DNA of 53,218 bases. Source: a virus. Its lineage: Duplodnaviria; Caudoviricetes. Below the pieces are notes generated by a model. It saw only the letters and a program-made list of their open reading frames with translations. It was not told the DNA's origin and made no database searches. Location: IMG/VR virus record IMGVR_UViG_3300032116_000277, positions 1 to 53,218 of that record; one strand, written 5' to 3'. Below, one piece after another: positions 27,793 to 49,039 of this stretch. Every line of letters starts with the position of its first letter. The first letter of the stretch is position 1. The position numbers and the translations under genes are program-made.

Positions 27793-28137
27793 TTAGTATT
27801 TTACATCTACGAACTCAGGAGTTACATATATACTCTTTGCATCTTTAAAGTACAAAGCTGTACCATTAACAACTAAAGTAAAAGTTTTATCTGTACTTGT
27901 TGTTAGTACAGGAGTTGTAGGTGTGTTGTTAGTGATTGTTCTGTTTTTTCTAACTTTTCTCTTCGTTGTTTTATACAACGGATTTAGTGCACCAGCTTTA
28001 ACAAGCTTTTTACGGAAATAGCAGGCATGTTGGTAGCTTACATTATTACTAGTTGCTACGTCAGAGAGGCTTCCTCCATTAATAAGATCTTGATTGATCT
28101 TTTGGATTTTCTGTTTGTCCAATTTGCTTTTGAACAT
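27793..28137 (-). CDS. HTH protein, paralogue of 28212..28577
   Basis: SLSDVATSNNVSYQHACYFR; C-terminal TFTLVVNGT...AKSI. Confidence 0.6.
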   Translation of the reverse strand: MFKSKLDKQKIQKINQDLINGGSLSDVATSNNVSYQHACYFRKKLVKAGALNPLYKTTKRKVRKNRTITNNTPTTPVLTTSTDKTFTLVVNGTALYFKDAKSIYVTPEFVDVKY

Positions 28138-28211
28138 GTTTTAGGATATTTAAGATTAAAAAAAAAGGTACAAGTTTTCTTGTACCTATTTAGTTTGTGA
28201 TAAGAGTTTAT

Positions 28212-28577
28212 TTAGAAATTTATTTCCATACTATCCTTATCAATGTTAATGTTTTTTGCGTGCCCAGATATTTGTACTGATGTTCCATTAACTATAAACT
28301 TGTAAGTATCACCACTAAGTGAGCTAGAAGAATCTACTGACTTTATTTGACCAATTGTTTTACTTGTTGATGGTCTTACATCAACAGAACCGGTCGGGCG
28401 TTTACCTCTAACTGAAGGAAAGTTAACTCCCTCAGCTTTAAATCTAGCTTTATAGTTATGTACGGATGATATTGCTACACCAAAGTGCTTGGCAATGTCT
28501 TCAGGAGCAGTTCCTTTTTGCACCATTTGTTTCATCTGTTCAACCTGATCTAAAGAAAGACGTTTTTTATTAGCCAT
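28212..28577 (-). CDS. HTH DNA-binding protein
   Basis: APEDIAKHFGVAISSVHNYK; C-terminal TYKFIVNGT...AKNI. Confidence 0.7.
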   Translation of the reverse strand: MANKKRLSLDQVEQMKQMVQKGTAPEDIAKHFGVAISSVHNYKARFKAEGVNFPSVRGKRPTGSVDVRPSTSKTIGQIKSVDSSSSLSGDTYKFIVNGTSVQISGHAKNINIDKDSMEINF

Positions 28578-28671
28578 ATTTATTGAATTATTTAGCCGTT
28601 ACAAAAATACATCTTTTCAAAAGATAATGGATTTGTGTATATTCACATGTGAATTTATTGACAAAACGCAA

Positions 28672-28767
28672 TGTAACTAACTGATAGTCAACACTGTTAT
28701 CTGCCTTACAAGCAGAGGGTCGGCGGTTCAAACCCGTCAACTCCCACTTGATAATCAGTAAGTTACA
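28672..28767 (+). mobile_element. attP: 3' half of tRNA-Val(TAC) (28699-28747) flanked by 20-bp imperfect inverted repeats
   Basis: ATCTGCCTTACAAGCAGAGGGTCGGCGGTTCAAACCCGTCAACTCCCAC comprises anticodon arm, T arm and 3' acceptor strand, with no 5' half. IRs TGTAACTAACTGATAGTCAA and TTGATAATCAGTAAGTTACA match at 17/20. Directly upstream of the integrase. Confidence 0.85.
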
Positions 28768-28792
28768 AGGTTTTTAACTAAAAAAGTTAGCC

Positions 28793-29662
28793 ATGTTTCT
28801 TACTAAATCTTTAGATTACGCTTTTTCAAAGCTAAAAGTGGAGCCACATACTAAGGAGTGTGTGGCTTCTTCATTAAAGTATATCCAACTTTCTATACGG
28901 GCCCTGGGATATAATCAGGTAGAAGCACATCGTATAAAGCGTAAGCATATTCGTTTTATCATGGATCACTGTGAACAGGAAAGAAACCTTTCTGCCCGTA
29001 GCTGGAACGCTTACAGAACCTATCTTGCTATGCTGTTTGAACAGCTGTTGGACTATGAGCTGGTGGAAGAAAATCCAGTGCTACAACTCCGTAAAAAGCA
29101 GGAAGATGAGGTTGTGCGTACCATTCTGACGCTAGAACAAAGAAAATTACTGATAGAACACTTAAAAGAAACCGATCCGGTGTTCTTAAGGTTTATACAA
29201 ATCTTCTTTCACTCTGGTGCCAGGCGTACTGAGCTACTAAGTTTACGTATAGAAAACACATACTTGGATAAAGGATATTACCAGGTCTTTGTCAAAAAGG
29301 GACGAAAGAAACGCTGGGTAACCAAGGTAATTAAGGAAATAGCCCTGCCCTTCTGGAGGGAACAGATTGGTAATCACATATCCGGTTATATATTTTCTAT
29401 AGGCTTATTACCTGGTGATAAACCCATTCGTCCAGAACAGGTTACCCGCAGGTGGAAACGTCATGTAAAAGATAAACTTGACATTACAGCAGATCTGTAC
29501 AGTTTGAAGCATCTCAATACAGATGAGGTATCATCTGAGCTTTCTCTTATGGAGGCAGCTAAGCATAACTCTCACTCTGTTCAGATGGCCAAAAAACATT
29601 ATGCTGTTAATGAAACGTTGCGTGAATTGGAAAGAGTTAGGAAGATTAAGAATGAGCTTTAA
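28793..29662 (+). CDS. int: Tyrosine recombinase / integrase
   Basis: SAM-like N-terminal part (SARSWNAYRTYL..ENP), HSGARRTELL, LYSLKH, H...KHYA; adjacent att core. Confidence 0.88.
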   Translation: MFLTKSLDYAFSKLKVEPHTKECVASSLKYIQLSIRALGYNQVEAHRIKRKHIRFIMDHCEQERNLSARSWNAYRTYLAMLFEQLLDYELVEENPVLQLRKKQEDEVVRTILTLEQRKLLIEHLKETDPVFLRFIQIFFHSGARRTELLSLRIENTYLDKGYYQVFVKKGRKKRWVTKVIKEIALPFWREQIGNHISGYIFSIGLLPGDKPIRPEQVTRRWKRHVKDKLDITADLYSLKHLNTDEVSSELSLMEAAKHNSHSVQMAKKHYAVNETLRELERVRKIKNEL

Positions 29663-30191
29663 CAAACTTACTTAGTAATCCGCTAAACCTTCCGCTTATA
29701 CTATCAGCACCTGACATAGTCTGATCTTCTATAAGATCAATATGGTCTACTAGGTCACCTTCTTCGTTGACTTGTTTACCCATGCGTTTAATATCATAGA
29801 CAATTGCTTCTGTCTTGTGTTTAAACTCCAGGTTAATAAACAGTACTTCTCTTTTGATGGGAAGATCCTTCCAGTTATCTGGAAGTTTATCATCTTTAGG
29901 TGATGTTCTAACCCAGGCTTCTGTTGCCCAGCCTACACCATAAGGTATAAACTTTTCATGTATACTGTCAGCTATACCGGGTAAGACAACATCAACGAAC
30001 TTATCTTTCATGTCTTCTGACTTTAGAAACTCGTCAGGTATAGGGATGTGGATGATGGCATCTTTATCATTACCATCTTTATGTGCACCGAATACGGTGA
30101 CGTGAGGAAACAGGTCTCCTACAGAAAGCATATATCTCTTGATATTGTCAAGATATCCTTTCTTGATTTCTTCATATTTTTCTTCTGTCAT
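29646..30191 (-). CDS. Hypothetical protein
   Basis: 181-aa ORF with an EAW motif. Confidence 0.7.
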   Translation of the reverse strand: MTEEKYEEIKKGYLDNIKRYMLSVGDLFPHVTVFGAHKDGNDKDAIIHIPIPDEFLKSEDMKDKFVDVVLPGIADSIHEKFIPYGVGWATEAWVRTSPKDDKLPDNWKDLPIKREVLFINLEFKHKTEAIVYDIKRMGKQVNEEGDLVDHIDLIEDQTMSGADSISGRFSGLLSKFVKAHS

Positions 30192-36893: not shown

Positions 36894-37469
36894 TTATAAA
36901 CGTTTATTAATAAGTTTAGATCTACATATGTTGCAGAAGTAGGTACCTTCTTGATCAACTTGTTTGATTGTACCTTTTGCAGAACTCATTAAGCATTTAG
37001 AGTCATTAGTACAATGATCAAGACCAAAGTTGTGACCTACTTCATGTATTGAAACTTTATTAATACGCTCAAGAACTAGTTTTTTAGAAAAGCCTTTTAA
37101 TCTATAAACAGATACAACGCATATGTTACTATTGCGTTTTGCAAGCCCAAATATTCCCCACTCAGGTTGACCGGGTGTTTTAGTATAGCAAACATCTTTT
37201 TCAGTAATAAGTATCGTATGATTAGATGTTTCATACTTATCAAGCATTTTTTGAGCATCATATCTACTACTTCTTATTTTAGCATGTATATCTTTAGTTC
37301 CACTTATAGGCGTATTAACTATACATCTGATACTATAAAAAGATTCTAATGAAGACTTGATCGTATTTATGTAAGCTTTGTCTACATTATCTATAGGTTG
37401 TATGTATATAACTGACTTAGAATCTATGTGAAAAAGATGAATAATAAATAAAAACAGTAGAGTTTTCAT
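36894..37469 (-). CDS. Archaemetzincin-like zinc metalloprotease (peptidase M54)
   Basis: HEVGHNFGLDHC....CLM (HExxHxxGxxH, Cys, Met-turn), FCNIC; hydrophobic N-terminus. Confidence 0.85.
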   Translation of the reverse strand: MKTLLFLFIIHLFHIDSKSVIYIQPIDNVDKAYINTIKSSLESFYSIRCIVNTPISGTKDIHAKIRSSRYDAQKMLDKYETSNHTILITEKDVCYTKTPGQPEWGIFGLAKRNSNICVVSVYRLKGFSKKLVLERINKVSIHEVGHNFGLDHCTNDSKCLMSSAKGTIKQVDQEGTYFCNICRSKLINKRL

Positions 37470-37576
37470 ATGGTACTATTTTAATTATCAAATATCACTG
37501 GAGGCATGTATAACATAGAGATATAGTTTTAAATTAATAATATGTTATTAAGACATACCCCCAGTGAGAACTTAAA

Positions 37577-37897
37577 CTAAGGCAAATATTGAAACACAAT
37601 AACTCCTATAAAACTTAGTATACAAACAGACAGCATTACTGCCATTTTATATACTCCATCCTTTTTAAAAGAAGGACGTTTATAGAAAGGATCTGTTCTA
37701 ACATCTAAGTAAAAACCAAAGCTTACAATACCAGTACCCATAAAAAATGCATTAACGAAGTCTTTATCAGTAAGCTGAATAGTTATTGTGTGATTACCAA
37801 CAACACTAACTGATATTAAAGCGTACACTGCATAAATAAGACAAACTAGTCCTAAAATAAAACTAGAGTTTTTTAAAAGTTTAAGAGTAGGTTCCAT
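37577..37897 (-). CDS. Membrane protein (3 TM)
   Basis: Three hydrophobic segments. Confidence 0.6.
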   Translation of the reverse strand: MEPTLKLLKNSSFILGLVCLIYAVYALISVSVVGNHTITIQLTDKDFVNAFFMGTGIVSFGFYLDVRTDPFYKRPSFKKDGVYKMAVMLSVCILSFIGVIVFQYLP

Positions 37898-37972
37898 AAA
37901 AGGATTTTAAAATTTTAATAAATAAAGTGGTTAGCCCCTTGGGTCAATGACTTACGGGGCTTAACCAACCAT

Positions 37973-38182
37973 TCAAGCTTTAGATAATTTTTCTTCTAGA
38001 TCTATACATACAACTAAAGATGGAATCCAACCAAGAACTACCATAAAAAAGCCTATACCACCGCTAGTGGCGGCCTCTCGGAAAGTCCCTGATTCCATGC
38101 ATAAATATGTAAGTGTAGATAAGCATAACCAGGTAATTAGTAATGTACCTAGAAAGCCAAGCATAAGAATTGTTCCTTTCAT
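37973..38182 (-). CDS. Small membrane protein (2 TM)
   Basis: Hydrophobic segments, GWIP. Confidence 0.6.
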   Translation of the reverse strand: MKGTILMLGFLGTLLITWLCLSTLTYLCMESGTFREAATSGGIGFFMVVLGWIPSLVVCIDLEEKLSKA

Positions 38183-38379
38183 AATGCGTTTCTTTTTTGT
38201 GAACGATTTGGTTTGTAAGGAAAAGCTCTGCGGTAATCAGATTCTAATGTGTCGTAAATGTCAGACCATTGTTTTTTCAAGCCATCAGTACGAAATGTCC
38301 ATACAGATACAAGAACTTCCCATAACAAGAATGGGATTGCAAGAAGACTTAATCCTAAGATTTTTAATAAGTACTTCAT
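38179..38379 (-). CDS. Small membrane protein
   Basis: N-terminal hydrophobic helix; ATGA-coupled to the next gene. Confidence 0.55.
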   Translation of the reverse strand: MKYLLKILGLSLLAIPFLLWEVLVSVWTFRTDGLKKQWSDIYDTLESDYRRAFPYKPNRSQKRNAL

Positions 38380-38408
38380 TTTGTTTGAGGTTGGTTAAAA
38401 AATATTTT

Positions 38409-38509
38409 TCTCCCTCTGCACTCAGTTGTAAGGCCCGCCCATAGAATTAACTATACGCTTGGATTCTTACAACTGCTAGCCCTTGGGAAGCTAGGATGGT
38501 GCATTAAGA
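38409..38509 (-). ncRNA. Twister ribozyme (type P1, with P5)
   Basis: UCU-UAA-UGCA-CC-auc-CUAGC-UUCCCAAGG-GCUAG-CAGUUGUAAG...CUUACAACUG-ag-UGCA-GAGGG-AGA. P2, P4, P5 and both pseudoknots (CCC/GGG, CC/GG) can form; predicted cleavage between U38506 and A38505. Confidence 0.8.
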
Positions 38510-39580
38510 TTCTGACAGGCTGAGTGTTGACCTACAGATACTATCGTTTTCATAGAGTTACCTCTACTTATACACACGGTGGATTACTCCATCGTAGATA
38601 GCAGTACCAGTGTTTAACCTCACTCCTGAGGGATCTTTCTCGCGGGTTACATAGACTTTGATTTCTACCAAGCGGACTGGATGGTCCTAAGCTACATCCC
38701 TGCAGCTACTTAGATATACTTTCTCTATCTCACAGCGTTCCTTGCGGTACTGGCTGTGCTGTCATATTACAGACAGATAAGGTACTTTGACCCAGAGAAC
38801 TAACAGACTGTTGCGTTAATTAATTAGTATTAAATAACAATAGCATAATCCAGGACGTGCCGTTAGAGTATAGCTCACTCCCTTTTGAGGAATGCGTACT
38901 ATAACGCCCCAGTGCAGGTTACCAGCCCACGGTATATTCAAGACCCTGTTACCAGGCCTTAAGTATACTGGATAACGCAGTAAGTCTCTTGGTAAAGACC
39001 TTCCACATGTATCCTACAGGTTTCATCCTATTGCGGTTTCCCGCTCAACAGTGTATGCTGACACTGTAGTTACTCAGGGGTTTCCCCACTGCAACTGTTA
39101 CCCGTTTGCTTACTCGGCCGGTATTACTACCGTAGATGTGCTCTTGTTAAGACACACCTTTTATACCTGTCACCAGGTTTATCCTAACGACCATAAGCGG
39201 CCGTGTCAATTGGTAGCTGATCAAGTCAGCTTAACGCACACACCGTGAGTATTTAAACTCTGAAGGTTTGACATTGTGTGCTTTGCACTATGGTTCTCAC
39301 TCGCAAAGAGAAGACCGAAGCCAACTCACCCATAGCGGATATACATTCAGGTATATCAGCCTACATAGACGCACGTGCTGTCTATTGCCCCCATCAACTT
39401 AACGGGTTAGTGCCCCATATACAACGCTCGGTTCGTCAACCAAGCCTTCTGTGACACGAGAAGCAACGTAAGTGAACCCAGTGGCCTAAGCCAGCCAGGT
39501 TCACCAATATTATCAGGTATCTCCAGTGATACCTATAACATAGTAATACTATATAGTACTGGTATGTTAGGGTATCTGTA
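38510..39580 (-). ncRNA. Candidate large (about 1 kb) structured ncRNA(s) rich in GNRA hairpins
   Basis: Minus-strand UAGAG-GUAA-CUCUA, GGA-GUAA-UCC, CCUG-GUAA-CAGG, GCGG-GAAA-CCGC, GGG-GAAA-CCC, CGGUA-GUAA-UACCG; no credible ORF. Confidence 0.55.
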
Positions 39581-39586
39581 GAGATA

Positions 39587-39814
39587 CTATTCAGTATCAT
39601 CATCAGCTTCTACAAGAGAGTAGAGGTGAGACCAGGCGTCAATAAGATCTGACATCTCAGACTTAAGTTCCTGCCACCGTGTGTAATCTTTGCCGGGTGG
39701 TATCTCATTCCAAGAACCGTTAAAACGGTATAGCTTGGTAATCACCTGAATTACTTCAGCACATTCTTCGGCTAAGGTGAGTGCTGGGTCACCTTGATTC
39801 TTATACAGAGCCAT
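39587..39814 (-). CDS. MazG-like NTP pyrophosphohydrolase
   Basis: LAEECAEVIQVITK...LKSEMSDL (ExxE / ExxD). Confidence 0.75.
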   Translation of the reverse strand: MALYKNQGDPALTLAEECAEVIQVITKLYRFNGSWNEIPPGKDYTRWQELKSEMSDLIDAWSHLYSLVEADDDTE

Positions 39815-39829
39815 ATGATTAGGTATTGG

Positions 39830-40630
39830 TTACAAAGAAGAAAGAGTGGTTTCACTTCGCATTATATCCACTCTTTTTACCCCGCTTCTAGGGTAGATAC
39901 GTCTTAGTATCATCAGAAGGCTGTTTTGCATTACGCTGGATGACCTACAAGCCCAGCAACCCTTTACAGGGAACTTAGGTTAAAGACATAAACTCAGTGT
40001 ATTCTATTTTGCAGGACACTGAAAGAACTGAATGGTTTCAAAGGCTTACCAATAACCCTAAATAGTAGCATATATGTCTGCGGTATATGCTAGACCGCTG
40101 TGTCTGTAAGGCCTACCTAGTCAACACAATTCTAGGTAGTTTGGTACAGCTCCTGCCCATACATAGCTGTTTAATGGTAAACCCCATATATAACCGTAAG
40201 ACTAGGTAAAGGGCAGAACACTTCTGATACATCAGACAATATGAGTGTTAACTGTAGATCCTCAATAGCCTAGTCTCCAGGGTTATAGCCATCTTATCCG
40301 CGGCCAAAAGTTCTACGGAATAGGTGGTAGAAAAAGATAGAGAAAGGTGTGACTGCTTGACTACCACAGACAAACAGTCACACAAGTACTTGTGAATCAG
40401 CGTTTTATTCCTAGGGATTCCGGATAACGCTGTTAGAACCGGTTAAGACCTTACGCACTACGTAAGTCTTCTGCTAAACTCATCAGAGCAGCTATGCCTG
40501 TGACGAGTACAACAGTTCCACTGGCGGTGAAGACCAGCATATTTTTAGAGTGATTAACTCCTACGGTATATAATCAATCCCTACCAGGCTGTAAATGCTA
40601 AGACCTGAGTAAATGGGATTGAAAAGGATA
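39830..40630 (-). ncRNA. Candidate structured ncRNA(s)
   Basis: Closing pair ATCAGAAG (about 39912) / CTTCTGAT (about 40221) encloses hairpins CTACCTAG/CTAGGTAG, TAGCATATA/TATATGCTA and CCCU-GUAA-AGGG; further hairpins continue to 40620. Confidence 0.45.
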
Positions 40631-40633
40631 CGC

Positions 40634-40660
40634 AAAAAAAAGGGGACACTTGTCCCCTTT
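40634..40660. terminator. Intrinsic terminator downstream of the 40677 gene
   Basis: A-run followed by GGGGACA-ct-TGTCCCC-TTT. Confidence 0.7.
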
Positions 40661-40676
40661 GGGTGGATACGGAAGA

Positions 40677-40982
40677 TTATTTCTTCCAGTATCCGCCCTG
40701 TTCGGCATCCGCGGGTATCAACCCGTGATAGCCGAACTCGTCAGCCGTTTCCGCTATGCGGACTTTCGGCCTGACGCGGAAGACACCTTCAGAGGTTTCT
40801 TCCACAACGTCTTCCATAGTGGAAGACCAGAAGGAAATTTGTTTGCCGTTGTCACATGTGACACGGAAACCAATATTTCCGGATTTGGAAGGATCTCCGA
40901 TCTCCAAATCTGCAAGCTTGAAAGTCAGTCCGTTTACGGCTGAGTCAAGCTTGGCTTGAACGAGTTTGTGTAACGAGTTCAT
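40677..40982 (-). CDS. Hypothetical protein, first gene of the minus-strand arm
   Basis: Likely start MNSLHKL at 40982; visibly GC/CpG-richer than the rest of the window. Confidence 0.55.
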   Translation of the reverse strand: MNSLHKLVQAKLDSAVNGLTFKLADLEIGDPSKSGNIGFRVTCDNGKQISFWSSTMEDVVEETSEGVFRVRPKVRIAETADEFGYHGLIPADAEQGGYWKK

Positions 40983-41256
40983 GGCCAATGAATTGGGTTT
41001 TACGGGGGTTACCCCGGCCCAATTTATTGGTGGGGTAGTTTGTATGGGCGGGCCATCACCCCCTCCTGTATACAAGATTTAGGGTACCGTAGTTAGGCTA
41101 GTTAAGTCAGTTAAGCAGTTAGGAGGCGGGGGTATAGTTTAACTAGAAAGTACCCGGGGGTACTATTTACTGTATTAGGTACTATTTGGTCACTTAGTTA
41201 CCTGAAAGTAATCATGGGTACTCTGTCTGTATAAGATTACCTTGGGTCCGTTCTAA

Positions 41257-41592
41257 ATGATAACCAAGGAAATACATGATATAATAAAATTTAAAAGATC
41301 TATCCTGCACAATAAGTGGGGCATAGAGTGTATTATTACCCTTGGAGACGGGGATCCCCTTAGATTTAATGAGATCCATGATAACCTACCCGGCTGCTCA
41401 GCCAAAGTATTAACCCAGGCATTAAAGAAGCTAGAAGCCCAGCATTTACTAGTTAGAACGTCTTATAACGAGATACCCCCAAGAGTTACCTACAAACTGT
41501 CTAATAACGGACTCTTAGTTCTTAAGTATGTAGAGGACTCTATACAGTTTTTTCGTGAGGCATTTATGCTCTACAATAAGTATGAAATTTAG
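41257..41592 (+). CDS. HxlR-family winged-helix transcriptional regulator
   Basis: KW...I...L.....RFNEI...LPG.SAKVLTQ.LK.LE...L..R..Y.EIPPRV.Y.LS..G. Confidence 0.88.
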   Translation: MITKEIHDIIKFKRSILHNKWGIECIITLGDGDPLRFNEIHDNLPGCSAKVLTQALKKLEAQHLLVRTSYNEIPPRVTYKLSNNGLLVLKYVEDSIQFFREAFMLYNKYEI

Positions 41593-41765
41593 TGATTCAC
41601 CAACTTCTACATTATTTGTTACTAAACGGTAACTTGTAGTTAAGGCACTGCACAAACTAAACCACCTCTTACTGCGTTATCTTTGTCGCTTTTTCACATC
41701 TGTTGAAAAGTCAGTAACTAATATGTAGAACTATGAAGTAAATTTGGAGAGTTTAAACTTTTTAG

Positions 41766-41782
41766 GTATATTATAGTGTAGA
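41766..41782 (+). promoter_or_regulatory. Putative phage late promoter GTATATTATAGTGTAGA
   Basis: Matches the 7308 and 51946 copies; precedes the packaging operon. Confidence 0.55.
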
Positions 41783-41802
41783 CCTAATCAAAAACCGACC
41801 TT

Positions 41803-42093
41803 ATGATACACACCTGTAACATCCACTGCCATACTATGGACCTGGACAAGGCAGACCTTATGGGAATCCAGGATAAGGGTAAATGGTTACCCTTTGCATT
41901 TCATCTAGATATTGTTATTGCCTGTAAACTTACTACTGATGATGAGGAAGAGATTGTTAGTGGATGCACTACTGTCTTTACTGATCACGGGGATACTTAT
42001 ATCATAGATACACCTTATACAGAGTTTCAAACAATCTTTCAGTTATATAACGCAGACCCTGATCCAGGAAAGTCTGAGGATCTTAATTTTTAA
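41803..42093 (+). CDS. Hypothetical protein
   Basis: 96-aa ORF after the promoter motif. Confidence 0.65.
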   Translation: MIHTCNIHCHTMDLDKADLMGIQDKGKWLPFAFHLDIVIACKLTTDDEEEIVSGCTTVFTDHGDTYIIDTPYTEFQTIFQLYNADPDPGKSEDLNF

Positions 42094-42105
42094 AACCAAC
42101 CCTAA

Positions 42106-42357
42106 ATGAGCACAGAAAACACCACAACCCAAGAAGAGCAAAAAGCTCCAACCAAAGAAGAGGTTATTTCTTTCTTTCAAGAACAAATTGAGGTAAAGAA
42201 AGTACAGCTTGAACTTCAAGAAATGAATACTGCACTTGCAGTAGCCAGAGCAGAAGAGCTCAAAGCACTTGCTTTTATAGCACAAATTACTAATCCACAG
42301 CAGCAAGAAGAAGAGTCTGATGAGCCCAAAGTCCGGAGTCTGAAAAAAGAAAAGTAA
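42106..42357 (+). CDS. Coiled-coil hypothetical protein
   Basis: 83-aa helical ORF. Confidence 0.7.
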   Translation: MSTENTTTQEEQKAPTKEEVISFFQEQIEVKKVQLELQEMNTALAVARAEELKALAFIAQITNPQQQEEESDEPKVRSLKKEK

Positions 42358-42788
42358 TGACCACGCTCTATAAGCTCAGAGACTACCGTGAAACGATGGT
42401 GTTTGAACGTGAGCATCCTAAAGAACTAAGATGGGATGAGCGGTATAAGCTATACATGCTCAATGAAAGTAAAGAGTGTCAAGGCATCTGGTTCAAAGAT
42501 AAAAAGTATTTAGTGGCAGAAGCTATCATGACGTGGAGTTCAGATAACGTGATTCATGTTGATAGCTTTACTGTTCATCCTCATCACCGAGGTCAAGGTT
42601 TAGGATACGATCTAATATCTACTGTCCTTGAATATGCAAAGGACATGAAAAAAGAGTACGTAACTGGTGAAGCAAGAAAAGGAGCATCTTGGCACATCTT
42701 TGAAAACCTAGGAGCAGTCCCCGTGCTTCTACATAAAAACTGGCATAACACCGGGGAAGATTATATGAGTTTTAAAATAGAACTGTAA
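42357..42788 (+). CDS. GNAT-family acetyltransferase
   Basis: VHPHHRGQGLGYDLI acetyl-CoA motif A; FENLG. Confidence 0.8.
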   Translation: MTTLYKLRDYRETMVFEREHPKELRWDERYKLYMLNESKECQGIWFKDKKYLVAEAIMTWSSDNVIHVDSFTVHPHHRGQGLGYDLISTVLEYAKDMKKEYVTGEARKGASWHIFENLGAVPVLLHKNWHNTGEDYMSFKIEL

Positions 42789-43159
42789 TGGCATTAGTTA
42801 ATCAGGTGGAAAAAAGAGTAAGAATGAATACTTGGCAAGCTGTCAAGTATCAGATTCTTACGCACTGTTACCTGTATGACATACCAGTTAGTGAAGCAGA
42901 TCTGAACTGTCTTACTCTTCTTGCCATAGAAGGAGATCAAGAACTTACAAGTTTTTGTAGCAAGGCTTTTGAGAAGAAGATATTTTCTTCTACTCAATCT
43001 GTAAGAAACTGTCTTACAAAAGCTGAAAAGAAAAACTTGATTAAGAAAGAAGGAAAGAACAAGAAGAAGATATATATCAATCCTGATATGAAAGTCAGCT
43101 CACGAGGAAACATTTTATTGGATTTTAAATTCCTCTGCGTTGCGACCCAGGAAAGCTAA
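42788..43159 (+). CDS. Winged-HTH-like protein
   Basis: STQSVRNCLTKAEKKNLI.K......YINP. Confidence 0.55.
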   Translation: MALVNQVEKRVRMNTWQAVKYQILTHCYLYDIPVSEADLNCLTLLAIEGDQELTSFCSKAFEKKIFSSTQSVRNCLTKAEKKNLIKKEGKNKKKIYINPDMKVSSRGNILLDFKFLCVATQES

Positions 43160-43559
43160 AGAGTTTATACCTGAAGTGGCACAGCAGACGGGCTTGAGTC
43201 CAGATGCTGTTGAAACTATTGTGTCATACTACTGGCAAGAAGTAAGGAAAAGTCTTAGTGCCCTTAAACATTCCAGAGTGCACATCACAAATCTTGGTGA
43301 TTTTGTGACAAAGCATTGGAAGCTGGATGATAAGATACAAATGCTTGAGAAGTTTGAAGAGAACAACAAGCAAAAAGGTCTTCAGCAAATGACTGCTCGT
43401 TATAAAACAGCAGAAACGCTTTATGATCTAAGGAATCTTAAAAAAATAATGGAGGAAGAGCAACAGAGAGCTGAGTTTATAAAAATGCATAAACGAACAA
43501 GCTATGAGTCTAAAAGAGAACGTGATCAGAATCTGGAAGAACAAGGGTCAGATACTTGA
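43140..43559 (+). CDS. HU/IHF-like DNA-binding protein
   Basis: EFIPEVAQQTGLS...VE.IV......V...L......V.ITNLGDF; IHF-like genes are typical of the crAss-like packaging block. Confidence 0.65.
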   Translation: MRPRKAKEFIPEVAQQTGLSPDAVETIVSYYWQEVRKSLSALKHSRVHITNLGDFVTKHWKLDDKIQMLEKFEENNKQKGLQQMTARYKTAETLYDLRNLKKIMEEEQQRAEFIKMHKRTSYESKRERDQNLEEQGSDT

Positions 43560-43833
43560 AGGTATCACAAACTCAATCTTTAAGAAAGAGGATGTAGAGC
43601 AGATTGCTAAAGAAAGAATGAGCATCTGCCGGCAATGTGATTTGTTTACAGAAAAAGATGCTGGTTGTGTTGTTGCAGGAACAACTCCATGTTGTGATCA
43701 GACAAAAGGAGGATGTGGCTGCTCTCTTGCATTTAAAACCAGATCACTTTCTTCAGATTGTCCTTTAGGTAAATGGAAAGCTGAAATAACTCAGGCTGAA
43801 GAAGATTTTTTAAAAAGTAAGTTAGGCATTTGA
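43504..43833 (+). CDS. Cys-rich phage protein
   Basis: RMSICRQC...CGCSLAFKTRS...CPLGKW. Confidence 0.7.
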   Translation: MSLKENVIRIWKNKGQILEGITNSIFKKEDVEQIAKERMSICRQCDLFTEKDAGCVVAGTTPCCDQTKGGCGCSLAFKTRSLSSDCPLGKWKAEITQAEEDFLKSKLGI

Positions 43834-44213
43834 TTCCGCATGATTCTATACAACTAGAAGTGGTTCATTCAATCTACAAGACCAAGACTATCTATCAAAA
43901 GATGGAAGGCGGGGATTTATTTCCAGAAAAGAAAGAAGTTCTTGTCAAACAGATTAAGGTAAAGAAATGGTTTAAGAAAGAATGTATTAGTTCTATAGAA
44001 GAGTACGTCAATAGTAAAAATAAGATTAGCAAACACAGATCCGTAGTGTTTGACAAATTCTCCGGAAGGTTCTACGCAACCTTTCATAGTCCTCAAGAAG
44101 TACTTCAAGCAATATCTACAACCCCTATGAATAACCCAATTGGATTCACCCATGATAATAACATTCACCCCTCAACATCACAAGTACAGCAGCATAGAAC
44201 CAGACGATATTGA
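43830..44213 (+). CDS. Hypothetical protein
   Basis: 127-aa ORF, TTG start. Confidence 0.5.
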   Translation: MIPHDSIQLEVVHSIYKTKTIYQKMEGGDLFPEKKEVLVKQIKVKKWFKKECISSIEEYVNSKNKISKHRSVVFDKFSGRFYATFHSPQEVLQAISTTPMNNPIGFTHDNNIHPSTSQVQQHRTRRY

Positions 44214-45287: not shown

Positions 45288-45800
45288 ATGATAAGATTAT
45301 TTGATATACAGAACGGAAAGGTAACAGCAAGTGAACACTGCTATACTCTTAAGTTTCTTAAAAATATTATGGACTCATATCCAGATGAACATTTGCGGAT
45401 ATATGCGTATCTGTTTTACATGACCTGCCCTAACCCTGATCTAAACCCCTTCTTTGATGTACCCGAAGCTGAGAAAGAAGAGATTATTCTTCAAGAGATT
45501 GATGCTGACTTTTCCACTGATGATGACCTTATTGTCGTTGGTCTTAGAATGTGTGAGAAACTATACCAAACTCCCACGTACAGAGCGTACATGGGTATTA
45601 AGACAATGTTGGATAGGCTTGCGAAGTATATGGAGACCACGGAGATTGAGCACGGTAGAGACGGTAACATTACAGCACTTGTTAATGCAGCCGCGAAGTT
45701 TGAGGCTATCCGGCAAAGTTTTAAAGGTACGCTACGAGATCTGGAAGAAGAGCAGCAGTCTCAAGTAAGAGGAGGACAAAACTTAGCATACGACCAATGA
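45288..45800 (+). CDS. Conserved crAss-like protein upstream of TerL (candidate terminase small subunit)
   Basis: Helical, ends RGGQNLAYDQ; function inferred from position only. Confidence 0.4.
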   Translation: MIRLFDIQNGKVTASEHCYTLKFLKNIMDSYPDEHLRIYAYLFYMTCPNPDLNPFFDVPEAEKEEIILQEIDADFSTDDDLIVVGLRMCEKLYQTPTYRAYMGIKTMLDRLAKYMETTEIEHGRDGNITALVNAAAKFEAIRQSFKGTLRDLEEEQQSQVRGGQNLAYDQ

Positions 45801-46447
45801 CAATAGTATCTATAAGAGAATATAATAAAAGAATAGAGTCTGTTCTTTCTGACTCATATAAAGTTGTACTAACCGATGAGGAGTATAACTATAGAAAAGA
45901 ATATTCTGTAGACTGGTCAGATAAAAAACGAGACGCAGGTCCTCAGTACATTATTGATGACAACTACTTAGAGAAAAGAAGTACTAATGGGCACATGGGG
46001 CAAAGAGCTGTAGAGAAGTTTTTAGGTATAGAATTTACAGATCCTGATACTTCATATGATATAAAAAAGAATATCCCTGATTTATTACCTGCAGGATTAC
46101 ATATTGGAGTAAAGACGCATAGAGTAGCTAATCCTCCAATGCTTGATTTTATACCGGATCAAGTATATGAGAAGCTTGATCCTGTAAAACAAAAGAAAGC
46201 TCGTTATCCTCAGATTATTGTAACAAAGGATAATAACTGTGAAAAGACCTTTTATATACTTGGTGTTTATGCTCCTAAAGTTCTTTGGCATAAAGACTAT
46301 GTAGATAAAGGTCTGATATATGATGATAAACTTTTAGAGAAGGGAACTAAGATTCCTTTTATTGGTGTACATAAACGTGTACCATTTAAAAACAAGGAAG
46401 AACTAGTTTCTATCATAGGTCCTACATGGACTTCTACTGTAAGGTGA
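45797..46447 (+). CDS. Hypothetical protein, possible restriction-endonuclease fold
   Basis: GQRAVEKFLG...PDLL....IGVKT resembles PD-(D/E)xK; stop codon overlaps the tRNA. Confidence 0.45.
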   Translation: MTIVSIREYNKRIESVLSDSYKVVLTDEEYNYRKEYSVDWSDKKRDAGPQYIIDDNYLEKRSTNGHMGQRAVEKFLGIEFTDPDTSYDIKKNIPDLLPAGLHIGVKTHRVANPPMLDFIPDQVYEKLDPVKQKKARYPQIIVTKDNNCEKTFYILGVYAPKVLWHKDYVDKGLIYDDKLLEKGTKIPFIGVHKRVPFKNKEELVSIIGPTWTSTVR

Positions 46448-46527
46448 CGGAACTGGCAGACGTGCCTCCCTGTCTCGGAGGTGGATAGGGTTTCTTATCC
46501 TTGGAGGTTCAAATCCTCCCCTTACAG
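46438..46527 (+). tRNA. Atypical tRNA, anticodon GTC (Asp), long variable arm
   Basis: Acceptor TGTAAGG/CCTTACA+G; anticodon arm CCTCC-CTGTCTC-GGAGG; variable arm GGATAGG-GTTT-CTTATCC; T arm GGAGG-TTCAAAT-CCTCC. Confidence 0.75.
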
Positions 46528-46536
46528 CAAAAATAC

Positions 46537-46610
46537 CGCGGGGTGGTGTAACGGTAGCACACTGGGCTCATAACCCAGGAATCCTAGTTCAACTCTAGGC
46601 TCCGCAACCA
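46537..46610 (+). tRNA. tRNA-fMet (CAT), initiator type
   Basis: C1:A72 mismatch, CTGGG-CTCATAA-CCCAG with three G:C pairs, encoded CCA. Confidence 0.9.
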
Positions 46611-46626
46611 CATTAAATTAATTCTT

Positions 46627-46845
46627 ATGGAAAACAATGACTATGCCCTTTACAACTATGTGTTTCACTACAATGCTCATAATAAAAACTGGGCAGCTAT
46701 TCCTAGAGAACTTTATAATGACTACTGGAGTGACTCTACTAAACCTGGTATTCTAAGAAGTAAGTCTATTGATACTTTGATAGAAATCTTACACAAAACA
46801 GGTGGAGATAAAAAGAAAATAAGCAAGCTAGTTGGAGAAAAATAA
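46627..46845 (+). CDS. Hypothetical protein
   Basis: 72-aa ORF immediately before TerL. Confidence 0.65.
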   Translation: MENNDYALYNYVFHYNAHNKNWAAIPRELYNDYWSDSTKPGILRSKSIDTLIEILHKTGGDKKKISKLVGEK

Positions 46846-49039
46846 ACCATATATAGAAGTACCAACCTATGAAAATGGGCAGTGGGATCTAACTACTTTT
46901 TACTCAAGAGAAGAGTTCAGAGACTATTTGGTTAAGTTATTTAAAGAGCCTGGTCAATATGGTTTTGATGAAAGCAGTCAGATATTTAATGCTGAAGCTA
47001 GAAAATACCAACAACAAGGTTTTTACTGCCCAGCCCCTGTAAAAACTAAAGACTTTATTAATTACTGGGATGACCAGAAAATGAAGTGTAAGTCAGGCAT
47101 TATTGTAAAAAATAACGGTAATGCATGGTATATCAGTCGGGATTATTACATGTGGCTGAATTTTCTTCCTATCTACGACAAGGAAGAAAAACGTTTTGAC
47201 TTTGCAAAAGTCAGAGATGCTCAGTATCACATGGCTTTGTATGAACAGCTAGCAGAACTGCACTACAAACACTCAGCTATTTTAAAGAAACGTCAGATAG
47301 CCTCATCGTATTTCCATGCAGCTAAGTTGATCAACATGTTCTGGTTTGAGAACGGTGCCGTTCTTAAGATGGGAGCAAGTCTTAAAGATTATATTTCAGA
47401 GAAAGGTACTTGGCGTATGCTTACTGAATACCGTACATTTCTAAACGAGCATACTGCTTGGTACAGACCATCTGATCCAGATAAAGTATTTTCCTGGCAG
47501 CAGCGTATTAAGGTTCGTATTAGTGGACGAGATACTTACAAGGGTAATAAATCTATTATTACTGGAACCTCTTTTGAAAAAGACCCAACAAATGGTGTCG
47601 GTGGTCCGTGTACTTACTTCTTTCACGAGGAGGCTGGTATTGCTCCAAAGATGGATCAGACCTATGAGTATATGAGACCAGCCATGCAGAGTGGTATGAT
47701 TACTACAGGTATGTTTATTGCTGCAGGCTCAGTGGGTGATTTAGAAGCCTGTGAACCTTTGAAGCTAATGGTACTTCAACCAGAAGCTAATGATATCTAT
47801 GCAGTAGATTCAAATCTTATAGACAAAGAAGGAACTATAGGAAAGACTGGATTATTTATTCCTGAGCAGTGGAGCATGCCACCATTTATAGATCAGTATG
47901 GTAACTCTAAAGTAGAAGAAGCTCTTGCCGCAATAGTTGAAGAGAGGATAAGGTGGAAGAGAGATCTTACTCCTGAGCAGTATCAGTTAAGGATATCACA
48001 GAAACCAACAAACATAGAGGAAGCTTTTGCCACAAGAAAAGAATCGGTATTTCCTCCTCACCTTGTATCCAAACAGATTCAACGTATTCAGGATAAAGAA
48101 TACTCAGTAGAATACTTAGATCTTTCTAGAAACGCAGAAGGTAAGATTATAGATAAGCCTTCAAGGAAGATTCCAATCATGGAGTTTCCTATATCTAAAA
48201 AGACAGAAGACAAAGAAGGAGTTATTTGTGTGTATGAAAGACCTGTAAAAGATCCTACGTTTGGGATGTACTATGCCGCTGTTGACCCTGTAGGAGAAGG
48301 TAAGACTACAACTTCTGAATCACTTTGTGCCATCTATATCTACAAAAACCCGGTGGAAGTTATAAAAGATGAGGGCAACGGAAAGGTTACTAACACTATT
48401 GAGCGGGATAAGATTGTAGCCTCTTGGTGTGGCAGGTTTGATGACCTGAACAAGACGCATGAACGTCTGGAGCTAATGATTGAGTGGTACAACGCCTGGA
48501 CCGTAGTGGAAAACAACGTAGCCTTGTTTATTCAGTACATGATTAGTAAGAAGAAACAGCGTTACCTGGTACCAAAGGATATGATCCTGTTCCTAAAAGA
48601 CATCGGGGCTAACCGGAACGTATTCCAAGAATACGGGTGGAAGAACGTGGGTACACTTTTTAAGGGCACGATCTTGTCTTACGGGATAGAGTTTCTAAAA
48701 GAGGAACTTGACCATGAAACCAAAGCTGACGGAGAGATTGTAAAGACCTTCTACGGAGTAGAGCGTATTCCTGATATCATGCTTCTAAAAGAGATGCAGG
48801 CTTACCAGGACGGAATAAACGTAGACCGGCTGGTAGCTTTTTGCTCCTTGGTTGCGTTTGCTAAGGTCCAACAATCTAACCGTGGGTTGGCTAAACGTGT
48901 AGAGGTTACAGAACAAAAGTTGGATAACTCCCAGAAATTTAGTAAATTAAATTGGAGCCCCTTTAGACATTTAGGTGGCTCTAAAGGTGCTAGTTCTGGT
49001 ATGAAAGCTCCCAGAAACCCCTTTAAAAATATAAGATGA
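46832..49039 (+). CDS. terL: Terminase large subunit (crAss-like)
   Basis: ILKKRQIASSY, FFHEEAG, P...EEAF, AAVDP nuclease motif, VENN, NVDRLVAF; adjacent to the portal. Confidence 0.9.
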   Translation: MEKNKPYIEVPTYENGQWDLTTFYSREEFRDYLVKLFKEPGQYGFDESSQIFNAEARKYQQQGFYCPAPVKTKDFINYWDDQKMKCKSGIIVKNNGNAWYISRDYYMWLNFLPIYDKEEKRFDFAKVRDAQYHMALYEQLAELHYKHSAILKKRQIASSYFHAAKLINMFWFENGAVLKMGASLKDYISEKGTWRMLTEYRTFLNEHTAWYRPSDPDKVFSWQQRIKVRISGRDTYKGNKSIITGTSFEKDPTNGVGGPCTYFFHEEAGIAPKMDQTYEYMRPAMQSGMITTGMFIAAGSVGDLEACEPLKLMVLQPEANDIYAVDSNLIDKEGTIGKTGLFIPEQWSMPPFIDQYGNSKVEEALAAIVEERIRWKRDLTPEQYQLRISQKPTNIEEAFATRKESVFPPHLVSKQIQRIQDKEYSVEYLDLSRNAEGKIIDKPSRKIPIMEFPISKKTEDKEGVICVYERPVKDPTFGMYYAAVDPVGEGKTTTSESLCAIYIYKNPVEVIKDEGNGKVTNTIERDKIVASWCGRFDDLNKTHERLELMIEWYNAWTVVENNVALFIQYMISKKKQRYLVPKDMILFLKDIGANRNVFQEYGWKNVGTLFKGTILSYGIEFLKEELDHETKADGEIVKTFYGVERIPDIMLLKEMQAYQDGINVDRLVAFCSLVAFAKVQQSNRGLAKRVEVTEQKLDNSQKFSKLNWSPFRHLGGSKGASSGMKAPRNPFKNIR

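Follow-up and report, generated by a model that had tools for sequence, protein, structure and literature searches.

A putative integration cassette directed at tRNA-Val(TAC) in a freshwater phage distantly related to crAss-like phages

Results

Genes and features at the locus

We analyzed a linear viral contig of 53,218 bp from IMG/VR (record IMGVR_UViG_3300032116_000277; CheckV completeness estimate, 41%), and this whole stretch is referred to below as the window. Our analysis focused on a short segment in which the 3' part of a tRNA-Val(TAC) gene lies between two inverted repeats, with a gene for a tyrosine integrase (int) on one side and a divergent gene for a small helix-turn-helix protein, HTH1, on the other. 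A sequence-only reading of this stretch had described the 49-bp tRNA fragment, the 20-bp inverted repeats around it, a tyrosine recombinase 25 bp beyond the repeat and phage genes on both sides, and each of these was confirmed. The fragment was recovered by direct reading of the sequence and with an Rfam model, and the recombinase as a whole open reading frame (ORF) with matches to PF00589 and phrog_1. The phage genes around the segment include replication genes, with helicases, a primase and an ATPase on both sides, while the large terminase (TerL) and portal genes lie downstream (Table 1).

Table 1 Features of the window that are considered in the analysis, with positions counted from the first nucleotide of the window.
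Feature	Position	Strand	Remarks
HTH2, 114 aa, neighbor of HTH1	27793-28137	-	left border of the cassette
HTH1, 121-aa helix-turn-helix protein	28212-28577	-	divergent from the att site
Left inverted-repeat arm	28672-28691	.	GTAACT motif and TGATnnTCA near-palindrome; 7 nt 5' of the fragment
Predicted attP core, tRNA-Val(TAC) 3' part	28699-28747	+	tRNA position 26/27 to discriminator plus 1
Right inverted-repeat arm	28748-28767	.	TGATAATCA palindrome and AGTTAC; abuts the tRNA end
Tyrosine integrase int, 289 aa	28793-29662	+	core-binding and catalytic domains only
Conserved phage ORF, 181 aa, convergent with int	29646-30191	-	right border of the cassette
Large terminase TerL	46832-49039	+	classification context
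Portal protein	49134-51875	+	classification context

The tRNA-Val fragment and its bacterial counterparts

By sequence reading, the fragment corresponds to tRNA positions 26-73 and one further base. It holds an anticodon arm (stem TCTGC/GCAGA, loop CTTACAA, anticodon TAC) followed by a variable region, a T arm (GGCGG-TTCAAAC-CCGTC) and the 3' strand of the acceptor stem (AACTCCC+A). The Rfam tRNA model aligned to 28685-28738 over model positions 8-63 (22.3 bits, E 0.026). ARAGORN called no whole tRNA at the fragment, its only calls in the window being at 46438-46610, as is expected of a fragment lacking the 5' half. The acceptor 3' strand has no possible pairing partner in the upstream sequence, which makes the segment a tRNA fragment as opposed to a complete gene. 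It ends 45 bp before the start of int.

To compare the fragment with bacterial genes, a 47-nt core was scanned against one genome per prokaryote species, leaving free the two T-loop bases that vary among the phages. The scan yielded at least 120 loci with at least 122 exact matches, and the counts from it refer to the matches listed. The window core agrees with bacterial tRNA-Val(TAC) at 46 of 47 bases, the single mismatch being a purine-for-purine change at tRNA position 57. Such a near-exact match is what a tRNA-targeting attP should display, and it supports the earlier suggestion of an attP-type module aimed at tRNA-Val(TAC). In the sister phages L002-L004, L006 and L007, the match to the GAT T-loop variant of the bacterial tRNA-Val is complete (47/47). 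The T-loop variants among the at least 122 matches listed were GAA (53), GAT (35), GAC (18) and GAG (16).

Among 80 record titles listed, 55 name Chitinophagaceae or genera assigned to that family; in this count we take Ferruginibacter, Niabella, Niastella, Flavisolibacter, Parafilimonas, Terrimonas, Hydrotalea, Puia, Pseudobacter and Chitinophaga to be Chitinophagaceae. Three other titles name Chitinophagales or Chitinophagia and four name Spirosoma or Larkinella, while the remainder carry mostly unspecific Bacteroidota labels and a few odd labels of metagenome-assembled genomes (MAGs). The core points to a Chitinophagaceae-like Bacteroidota host. As the identical 47 nt are present across many genera, the expectation that the core would identify the host holds at the level of family or order at best, and not for the species.

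The arrangement of the fragment with both repeat arms recurs in six further phage contigs, which, like the exact bacterial matches, exceeds what chance would produce. When six distinct phage sequences, the window included, were compared at this site, the 50-nt core was identical at 47-50 of 50 positions, as compared to only 24-33 of 45 in the left flank and 9-31 of 45 in the right flank of diverged phage pairs. In int, synonymous sites are saturated (pS 0.73). The only tRNA positions that vary among the phages are 57 and 59, both of which lie in the T loop; at position 59, all four bases occur among bacterial genes, while position 57 is G in all of the at least 122 matches listed. A constrained core in which changes are limited to these two positions is the pattern predicted by selection for a working tRNA after integration, and this is the main argument that integration really happens. 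Moreover, identity to the host tRNA begins at the same base in the window and in the attR-like fragments at two bacterial loci (L076 and L106), where a tRNA-Val 3' fragment lies without its 5' half.

Contigs of one sequencing run (X8, places 28698-28699) also carry a tRNA-Val 3' part, there placed after non-tRNA sequence unlike that of the window phage, so other elements with tRNA-Val att fragments share the community.

One should also consider that a host tRNA might have been joined to phage sequence by an assembly chimera or host contamination, as short-read contigs break at the core, where 31-mers are shared with the host tRNA. We regard such an artifact as hardly conceivable. The arrangement is found in seven independent phage contigs, including a 127.7-kb genome that is 99% complete, the tRNA is represented by its 3' part alone, and the phage is widespread in freshwater data, with 17 runs from several studies holding at least half of the sampled words of the stretch.

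The integrase

The int ORF is preceded by an in-frame TAA six codons upstream of its start. PF00589 matched residues 112-227 only, at 27.9 bits and thus just above its cut-off (27.1), and phrog_1 (integrase) matched at E 5e-20. An AlphaFold2 model of the protein reached a pLDDT of 85 and was low only at residues 260-274, the loop before the tyrosine helix. In Foldseek, the model aligned to residues 75-356 of lambda Int (E 4e-10, TM 0.71/0.75, 285 columns) and retrieved 69 PDB chains at E ≤ 0.001, with all 35 of those listed being tyrosine recombinases. As judged from the model, the protein thus folds as a core-binding and a catalytic domain.

The catalytic set consists of R144, K169, Y236, K239, H261 and Y270. 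These residues, together with S237, L238 and H240, are invariant in the window and 17 relatives (39-91% identity). In a profile alignment to the archaeal Xer structure 4a8e, 'DLYSLKH' lies opposite 'TPHQLRH' and 'H..9..Y' lies opposite 'GH...IY'. The tyrosine and lysine of the first motif (Y236 and K239) are invariant in 18 of 18 sequences and, in a second alignment of long members, in 58 of 58, so that they characterize the family and do not indicate damage. Purifying selection acts on the gene, with dN/dS of 0.14 against L002 and 0.06 against L005.

The family to which this integrase belongs has no specific Pfam or NCBIfam model. All members at least 69% identical to the window protein are 289 aa long, while relatives below about 67% identity have 336-446 aa, with about 100 extra N-terminal residues that find no Pfam match. 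In a model of one long homologue (pLDDT 90.5), a long helix comes after several beta strands in this extension, ahead of the core-binding domain. An arm-binding domain would be expected to have such an arrangement, and these members would bind arm sites with it. The window protein appears to be secondarily arm-less, having arisen in a family with an N-terminal domain.

The phage L006 is informative in this respect. Its TerL is 91% identical to that of the window, yet its integrase is only 66% identical, has 364 aa and retains part of the N-terminal domain. Direct repeats of CTCTAACA precede its int start codon and are absent from the window, while in its tRNA fragment and the repeats on either side it agrees with the window. 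According to this comparison, the window-type allele lost the N-terminal domain, together with the stretch from the right arm to the start codon in which the direct repeats lie. An alternative account, that L006 and L007 lack the fragment, was rejected, as their ORF is longer and the fragment lies further upstream.

The integrase family in bacterial chromosomes

Homologues of the integrase were found in 26 of 401 sampled Chitinophagaceae genomes, at 26-51% identity. In 22 of the 30 homologue loci returned (L150-L179), the integrase gene directly follows a tRNA gene on its own strand: tRNA-Met at seven, His at four, Arg at four, Val(TAC) at three, and Lys, Ser, Ala and Gln at one each. Several of the remaining eight loci are at contig ends. 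One genome contains a 47.4-kb element (G182:C1:3362148-3409560) with tRNA-Val(TAC) as the target and a family integrase at attL. This element extends from the tRNA-Val(TAC) gene to a duplicate of that gene's 3' part, which agrees at 44 of 47 bases and differs only at the 5' end, and GTTAACA repeats are present in both arms. As chromosomal members lie at tRNA genes, integration is compatible with a Tyr/Lys active site. Judged by its layout, the site in the window has the anatomy of the attP of this integrase family.

Borders and distribution of the cassette

The HTH1-attP-int unit (about 28200-29645) is accessory in the phage clade. At its right border, the 181-aa ORF is 36-53% identical in 11 syntenic relatives. 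At its left border, HTH2 persists in some relatives without the cassette, while 10 relatives have none of HTH1, int and attP. In one of the relatives (L201:7560-7800), only the last 32 codons of HTH1 are left, preceded by a stop codon and adjoining the neighboring ORF, a remnant that reads as a deletion scar.

Such losses, together with the N-terminal truncation and the non-canonical catalytic residues of the integrase, could mean that the cassette is a decaying relic, namely a captured integrase gene and an att scar with no present function. We consider this improbable. A dN/dS of 0.06-0.14 is kept over 289 intact codons between phages whose TerL proteins are only 78% identical, the Tyr/Lys residues are invariant family traits that are also found in chromosomal members at attL, and the core is conserved far above its flanks.

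The flanking repeats and the HTH proteins

The two repeat arms are 20 nt each, 85% complementary and 56 nt apart. They follow the consensus yGTAACT-N3-TGATwATCA, which is kept in five further distinct phage sequences, and the TGATwATCA portion of each arm is a palindrome by itself. At the N3 positions, no complementarity between the arms exists in any phage compared, and protein-binding sites are therefore favored over a required hairpin. The left arm is a candidate binding site, in the P arm, for an accessory protein or for the integrase. HTH1, since it travels with the cassette, would be the obvious candidate for binding the repeats. Its match to HTH_7 (E 1e-4) is below the Pfam cut-off; matches of HTH1 and HTH2, beside attP, to HTH_7/HTH_23 are all sub-threshold, and no specific repressor family was matched. 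HTH1 may be considered as a candidate regulator or directionality factor. By eye, HTH1 and HTH2 share similar C-terminal stretches ('FIVNGTSV...' and 'LVVNGTAL...') and look like paralogues.

The arms also pair around the anticodon and T hairpins when the segment is folded as single-stranded DNA (28668-28772, -15.5 kcal/mol, z -3.06, with 1 of 200 shuffles as good), and one arm position is changed on both sides between the window and L002. It could thus be argued that a tRNA-like segment in a long stem serves as an RNA or DNA structure, for example in regulating int, as a signal for processing or in mimicking a tRNA. We find this very improbable, as the arms keep a sequence consensus and not strict complementarity, as the palindrome within each arm is typical of protein sites, and as a place beside int and identity to a host tRNA are what an attP predicts.

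A motif resembling TTGATAATCAA follows 11 of 118 bacterial tRNA-Val genes. The possibility that this is native host sequence that was copied by the phage was set aside on the basis of the one case that was traced, genome G408. There, a 27.7-kb element (G408:C1:603879-631641) sits in tRNA-Val(TAC), with a canonical integrase at its attR end; the motif belongs to the end of this integrated element, and downstream, the native sequence consists of a plain terminator. At six other loci (L092, L039, L143, L115, L129 and L142), the tRNA-Val gene and a terminator hairpin are followed by short direct repeats (GCACA..GCACA, GTGACC..GTGACC and TCACTAAC..TCACTAAC) that resemble arm-type sites of integrated elements; no family integrase was found within reach of these six loci.

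Identity of the phage

In a comparison with 50,697 phage records, TerL gave 143 matches, and all of those listed are crAss-like or belong to two neighboring groups, at 21-26% identity. The matches listed include Crassvirales-type phages (cr*_1, crAss001, PhiCrAssBcn, DAC17, ProJPt-Bp1, Fpv and phi14:2), as well as crAssE-Sib, Cellulophaga phages phi4:1 and phi17:2, and Leptolyngbya phage Lbo-JY46. The portal protein matched 128 records from the same groups, the nearest being Lbo-JY46 (34%, E 8e-100) and phi4:1 (25%, E 8e-48), with Crassvirales at 21-22%.

A more complete picture is offered by a relative, G405, with a genome of 127.7 kb that is 99% complete and whose first 30 nt are found again 611 nt before the end of the sequence. 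Its genes are ordered TerL, portal, a 414-aa ORF and the major capsid protein (MCP). The MCP is closest to Lbo-JY46 (28%), followed by crAssE-Sib (23%) and cr10_1 (22%), and also matches phi4:1 and phi17:2; the 12 records found are Lbo-JY46, seven of Lightbulbvirus type, crAssE-Sib, two of cr10_1 and one unannotated fragment. In terms of similarity, TerL is nearer to Crassvirales, while the portal protein and MCP are nearer to Lbo-JY46 and Lightbulbvirus. In GenBank, Lbo-JY46 is an unclassified member of Caudoviricetes and phi4:1 is a Lightbulbvirus, with neither placed under Crassvirales. Searches of G405 with PHROG and PDB sequences, which address the sequence level only, recognized no virion RNA polymerase. 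The large ORFs of G405 have 4791, 1759, 1568 and 1518 aa. The first of these (G405:C1:39039-53414, L192) has no PHROG and no PDB sequence match, while the 1568-, 1759- and 1518-aa ORFs are partly annotated (virion structural protein, peptidase domain and exonuclease domain).

Homologous TerL, portal and MCP genes are thus present in the crAss-like order, at only 21-26% identity. These similarities support placing the phage as a distant member of the wider crAss-like assemblage, while its membership in Crassvirales is not established. By the same comparisons, its nearest cultured relatives are Leptolyngbya phage Lbo-JY46 and the Cellulophaga Lightbulbvirus. The earlier description of the phage as crAss-like therefore stands as far as TerL, portal and MCP match crAss-like phages and two neighboring groups, and needs correction in that identity to Crassvirales is only 21-26% and the nearest cultured phages lie outside that order.

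As to other features of the window, two phage tRNA genes, tRNA-Asp and then tRNA-Met, were called by ARAGORN just 5' of TerL (46438-46610). The call for tRNA-Asp is unusually long (91 nt) and overlaps the end of the ORF at 45797-46447. Lbo-JY46 likewise has a tRNA cluster upstream of its own TerL. About 6.7 kb (37469-44140) contain no ORF of at least 150 aa and presumably hold numerous small genes.

Search for integrated copies

Several results weigh against integration of the window phage and need to be considered together. The protein itself starts at the core-binding domain, without an N-terminal arm-binding domain, which, according to PMC8138268, most mobile-element integrases need. Its catalytic residues depart from the consensus at two places, Tyr236 standing for His-II and Lys239 for Arg-II, while R144, K169, H261 and Y270 are canonical. 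The T-loop variant of the window, AAA (TTCAAAC), occurs in none of the 122 core matches listed and in none of 401 Chitinophagaceae genomes searched directly. The window core therefore reaches 46/47 and not 47/47 against known tRNAs. Finally, the 11 syntenic relatives mentioned above, whose ATPase is 55-71% identical, carry neither the integrase nor the fragment, and the phage lineage is thus independent of the cassette.

The other results of this kind come from searches for junctions and prophages. An attL-type junction, in which the tRNA end is joined to the right arm, had no match in contigs of species-representative genomes. In metagenome contigs from JGI, the same junction gave four matches, two of which are attP and two of which are tRNA-Val sites. 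In IMG/VR, both junction patterns were found in phage contigs of the attP form only. TerL was searched for in 802 genomes, of which 401 were Chitinophagaceae and 401 were spread across the Bacteroidota phylum. One hit came from the former, in a fragmented MAG where it lies on a contig of 2.4 kb, and none came from the latter. A collection of 5.8 billion proteins, used for both TerL and integrase clusters, holds 4573 TerL relatives at E ≤ 1e-30. For the best 120 TerL clusters (at least 79% identity), the longest contigs are 124-131 kb with a maximum of 131,122 bp, that is, the size of the phage genome, and for integrase clusters of at least 69% identity, the longest contig is 127,008 bp.

The two metagenome tRNA-Val sites are without phage and without a family integrase. 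In tblastn searches, the window integrase and 120 family proteins had no match at 120 bacterial tRNA-Val loci and these two sites, which are thus not attL sites of the integrase family, and the window ORFs of at least 60 aa gave one unrelated small match only at the bacterial loci. Two raw-read runs showed no phage coverage at the 3% of reads sampled, the only reads placed there being tRNA reads from other organisms. In a further two runs, Logan contigs end at 28697-28728, because the phage shares a 31-mer with the host tRNA, and are uninformative on junctions.

A temperate phage, as proposed in the sequence-only reading, was not borne out by an integrated copy in any collection searched, and the check for attL or attR junctions or a prophage returned only attP forms or tRNA sites without phage. 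Since the searches covered samples, and short-read assemblies are interrupted at the ends of prophages, the negative outcomes weaken the case for lysogeny without removing it. Lysogeny of the window phage is thus plausible but unproven.

This outcome also bears on another explanation, by which the segment is a former integration module that now performs no chromosomal insertion and is kept for recombination between phage copies (resolution of multimers or concatemers) or for an episomal carrier state like that of a plasmid. Apart from the missing attL, attR and prophage, several observations fit it. The window lacks the arm-binding domain and the arm-type direct repeats that the L006 allele has, the symmetry of the repeats flanking the core would be suited to a reaction of attP with attP, and Crassvirales are reported, in PMC10983915, to persist without integration, their prototype being a phage-plasmid. 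A resolution site, however, need not stay a faithful 3' part of a tRNA, while here only positions 57 and 59 vary and the sisters match at 47/47. Furthermore, with 11 relatives lacking the cassette, it is not needed for replication or packaging. We consider this explanation unlikely, although it should be kept in mind.

Discussion

In our interpretation, 28200-29645 is probably a site-specific integration cassette, composed of HTH1, attP and int, of a freshwater phage of about 125-130 kb that is a distant relative of crAss-like phages. By the tRNA match, integration would be directed, with similar likelihood, into tRNA-Val(TAC) of a Chitinophagaceae-like host. We infer integration of the window phage from the anatomy of the site, the match to the host tRNA, selection on both gene and site, and the integration of family members in chromosomes. 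The integrase, described earlier as intact, can be so regarded with respect to its whole ORF, its predicted two-domain fold and the purifying selection on it, yet not with respect to the N-terminal domain, which was lost, or to His-II and Arg-II, which are Tyr and Lys.

The reaction may be pictured as follows. An arm-less integrase of a Bacteroidota family that targets tRNA 3' ends would act on attP and pair the 49-bp phage fragment with the tRNA-Val gene of a Chitinophagaceae-like host. Strands would be exchanged in or close to the anticodon stem-loop, the point from which the sequences are identical. The tRNA would be restored at attL by the 3' part that the phage brings, and the phage would come to lie between attL and attR. 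The GTAACT/TGATwATCA repeats might bind the integrase or the adjacent HTH protein, replacing the lost arm-site system.

Beyond this, we suggest tentatively, and while leaning slightly away from it, that an outer crAss-like lineage is truly temperate, having captured the cassette from integrative elements of Bacteroidota and streamlined it to an arm-less Tyr/Lys integrase with palindromic sites and an HTH partner.

If integration takes place as proposed, the crAss-like assemblage would have its first module for integrative lysogeny in which attP is defined and attB predicted. With these two sites and a compact integrase in hand, lysogeny can be tested directly in a crAss-like relative, and the core gives a lead to the host of a freshwater phage clade that is uncultured and, given the 4573 TerL relatives, abundant. 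The integrase family is itself uncharacterized, with two 'invariant' catalytic residues replaced and members nonetheless found at attL sites. Alleles with and without the N-terminal domain in near-identical phages provide material on the need for an arm-binding domain, and, should the cassette integrate, the full-length and arm-less alleles would amount to a natural experiment on the loss of arm-dependence.

Comparison with known systems

In the literature consulted, crAss-like phages are described as 'incapable of lysogeny' (PMC8375218) and 'strictly lytic' (PMC10136315), and lysogeny rates of Crassvirales as 'very low' (PMC10983915). For epsilon crAss-like phages, PMC11054128 reports repressor and anti-repressor genes and no integrase, and the word 'Integrase' is absent from the main text of PMC7886860. 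Our literature search found no description of an attP-int module in a crAss-like phage, although supplementary tables may list integrases, and found no paper on Lbo-JY46. The window phage shares with the crAss-like assemblage the order TerL, portal, ORF and MCP and, as inferred here, a Bacteroidota host. It differs from Crassvirales in genome size (about 125-131 kb versus about 100 kb) and from crAss-like phages in carrying an integrase, which reviews state to be lacking in the group.

Classical tRNA-targeting integrases include those that use a sublocation in which identity extends from the anticodon stem to the 3' end of the tRNA. As in a classical attP-int module of the lambda type, int in the window adjoins a tRNA 3' fragment reaching from the anticodon stem to the discriminator, and the predicted fold matches lambda Int 75-356. 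Unlike classical modules, the window integrase has no arm-binding domain and carries Tyr/Lys for His-II/Arg-II, while the core is flanked by 20-nt inverted repeats with palindromes and not by recognizable arm-type direct repeats.

Cre-loxP of P1 represents an arm-less phage tyrosine recombinase that acts on a symmetric site, loxP being 34 bp with an 8-bp spacer. It serves as the model for a role in resolution, yet loxP is unrelated to a host tRNA, whereas the repeats in the window are 56 nt apart around a tRNA fragment.

An arm-less phage integrase does have a precedent in Brujita, whose protein, according to PMC8138268, comprises the core-binding and catalytic parts only and is reported there to drive integration and excision without arm sites. 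An arm-less protein can thus work as an integrase. The same source counts 27 phages with such simple recombinases against 410 with arm-binding ones. The window protein has no specific sequence relationship to this precedent, and its model aligns to the corresponding structure (5vfz) with a Foldseek TM of 0.49, as compared to 0.71-0.75 for lambda Int.

The integrases of the Chitinophagaceae chromosomal elements belong to the same family, with 34-54% identity, the same R-K-Y-K-H-Y set and the same tRNA sublocation. They differ from the window integrase in their length of about 390-430 aa, in their N-terminal domain and in the GTTAACA-type direct repeats of both arms, and they are seen integrated, while the window version is seen only as attP in phage. 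We conclude that the cassette is of a known attP-int kind, real and selected, while its form and the phage that carries it are unusual.

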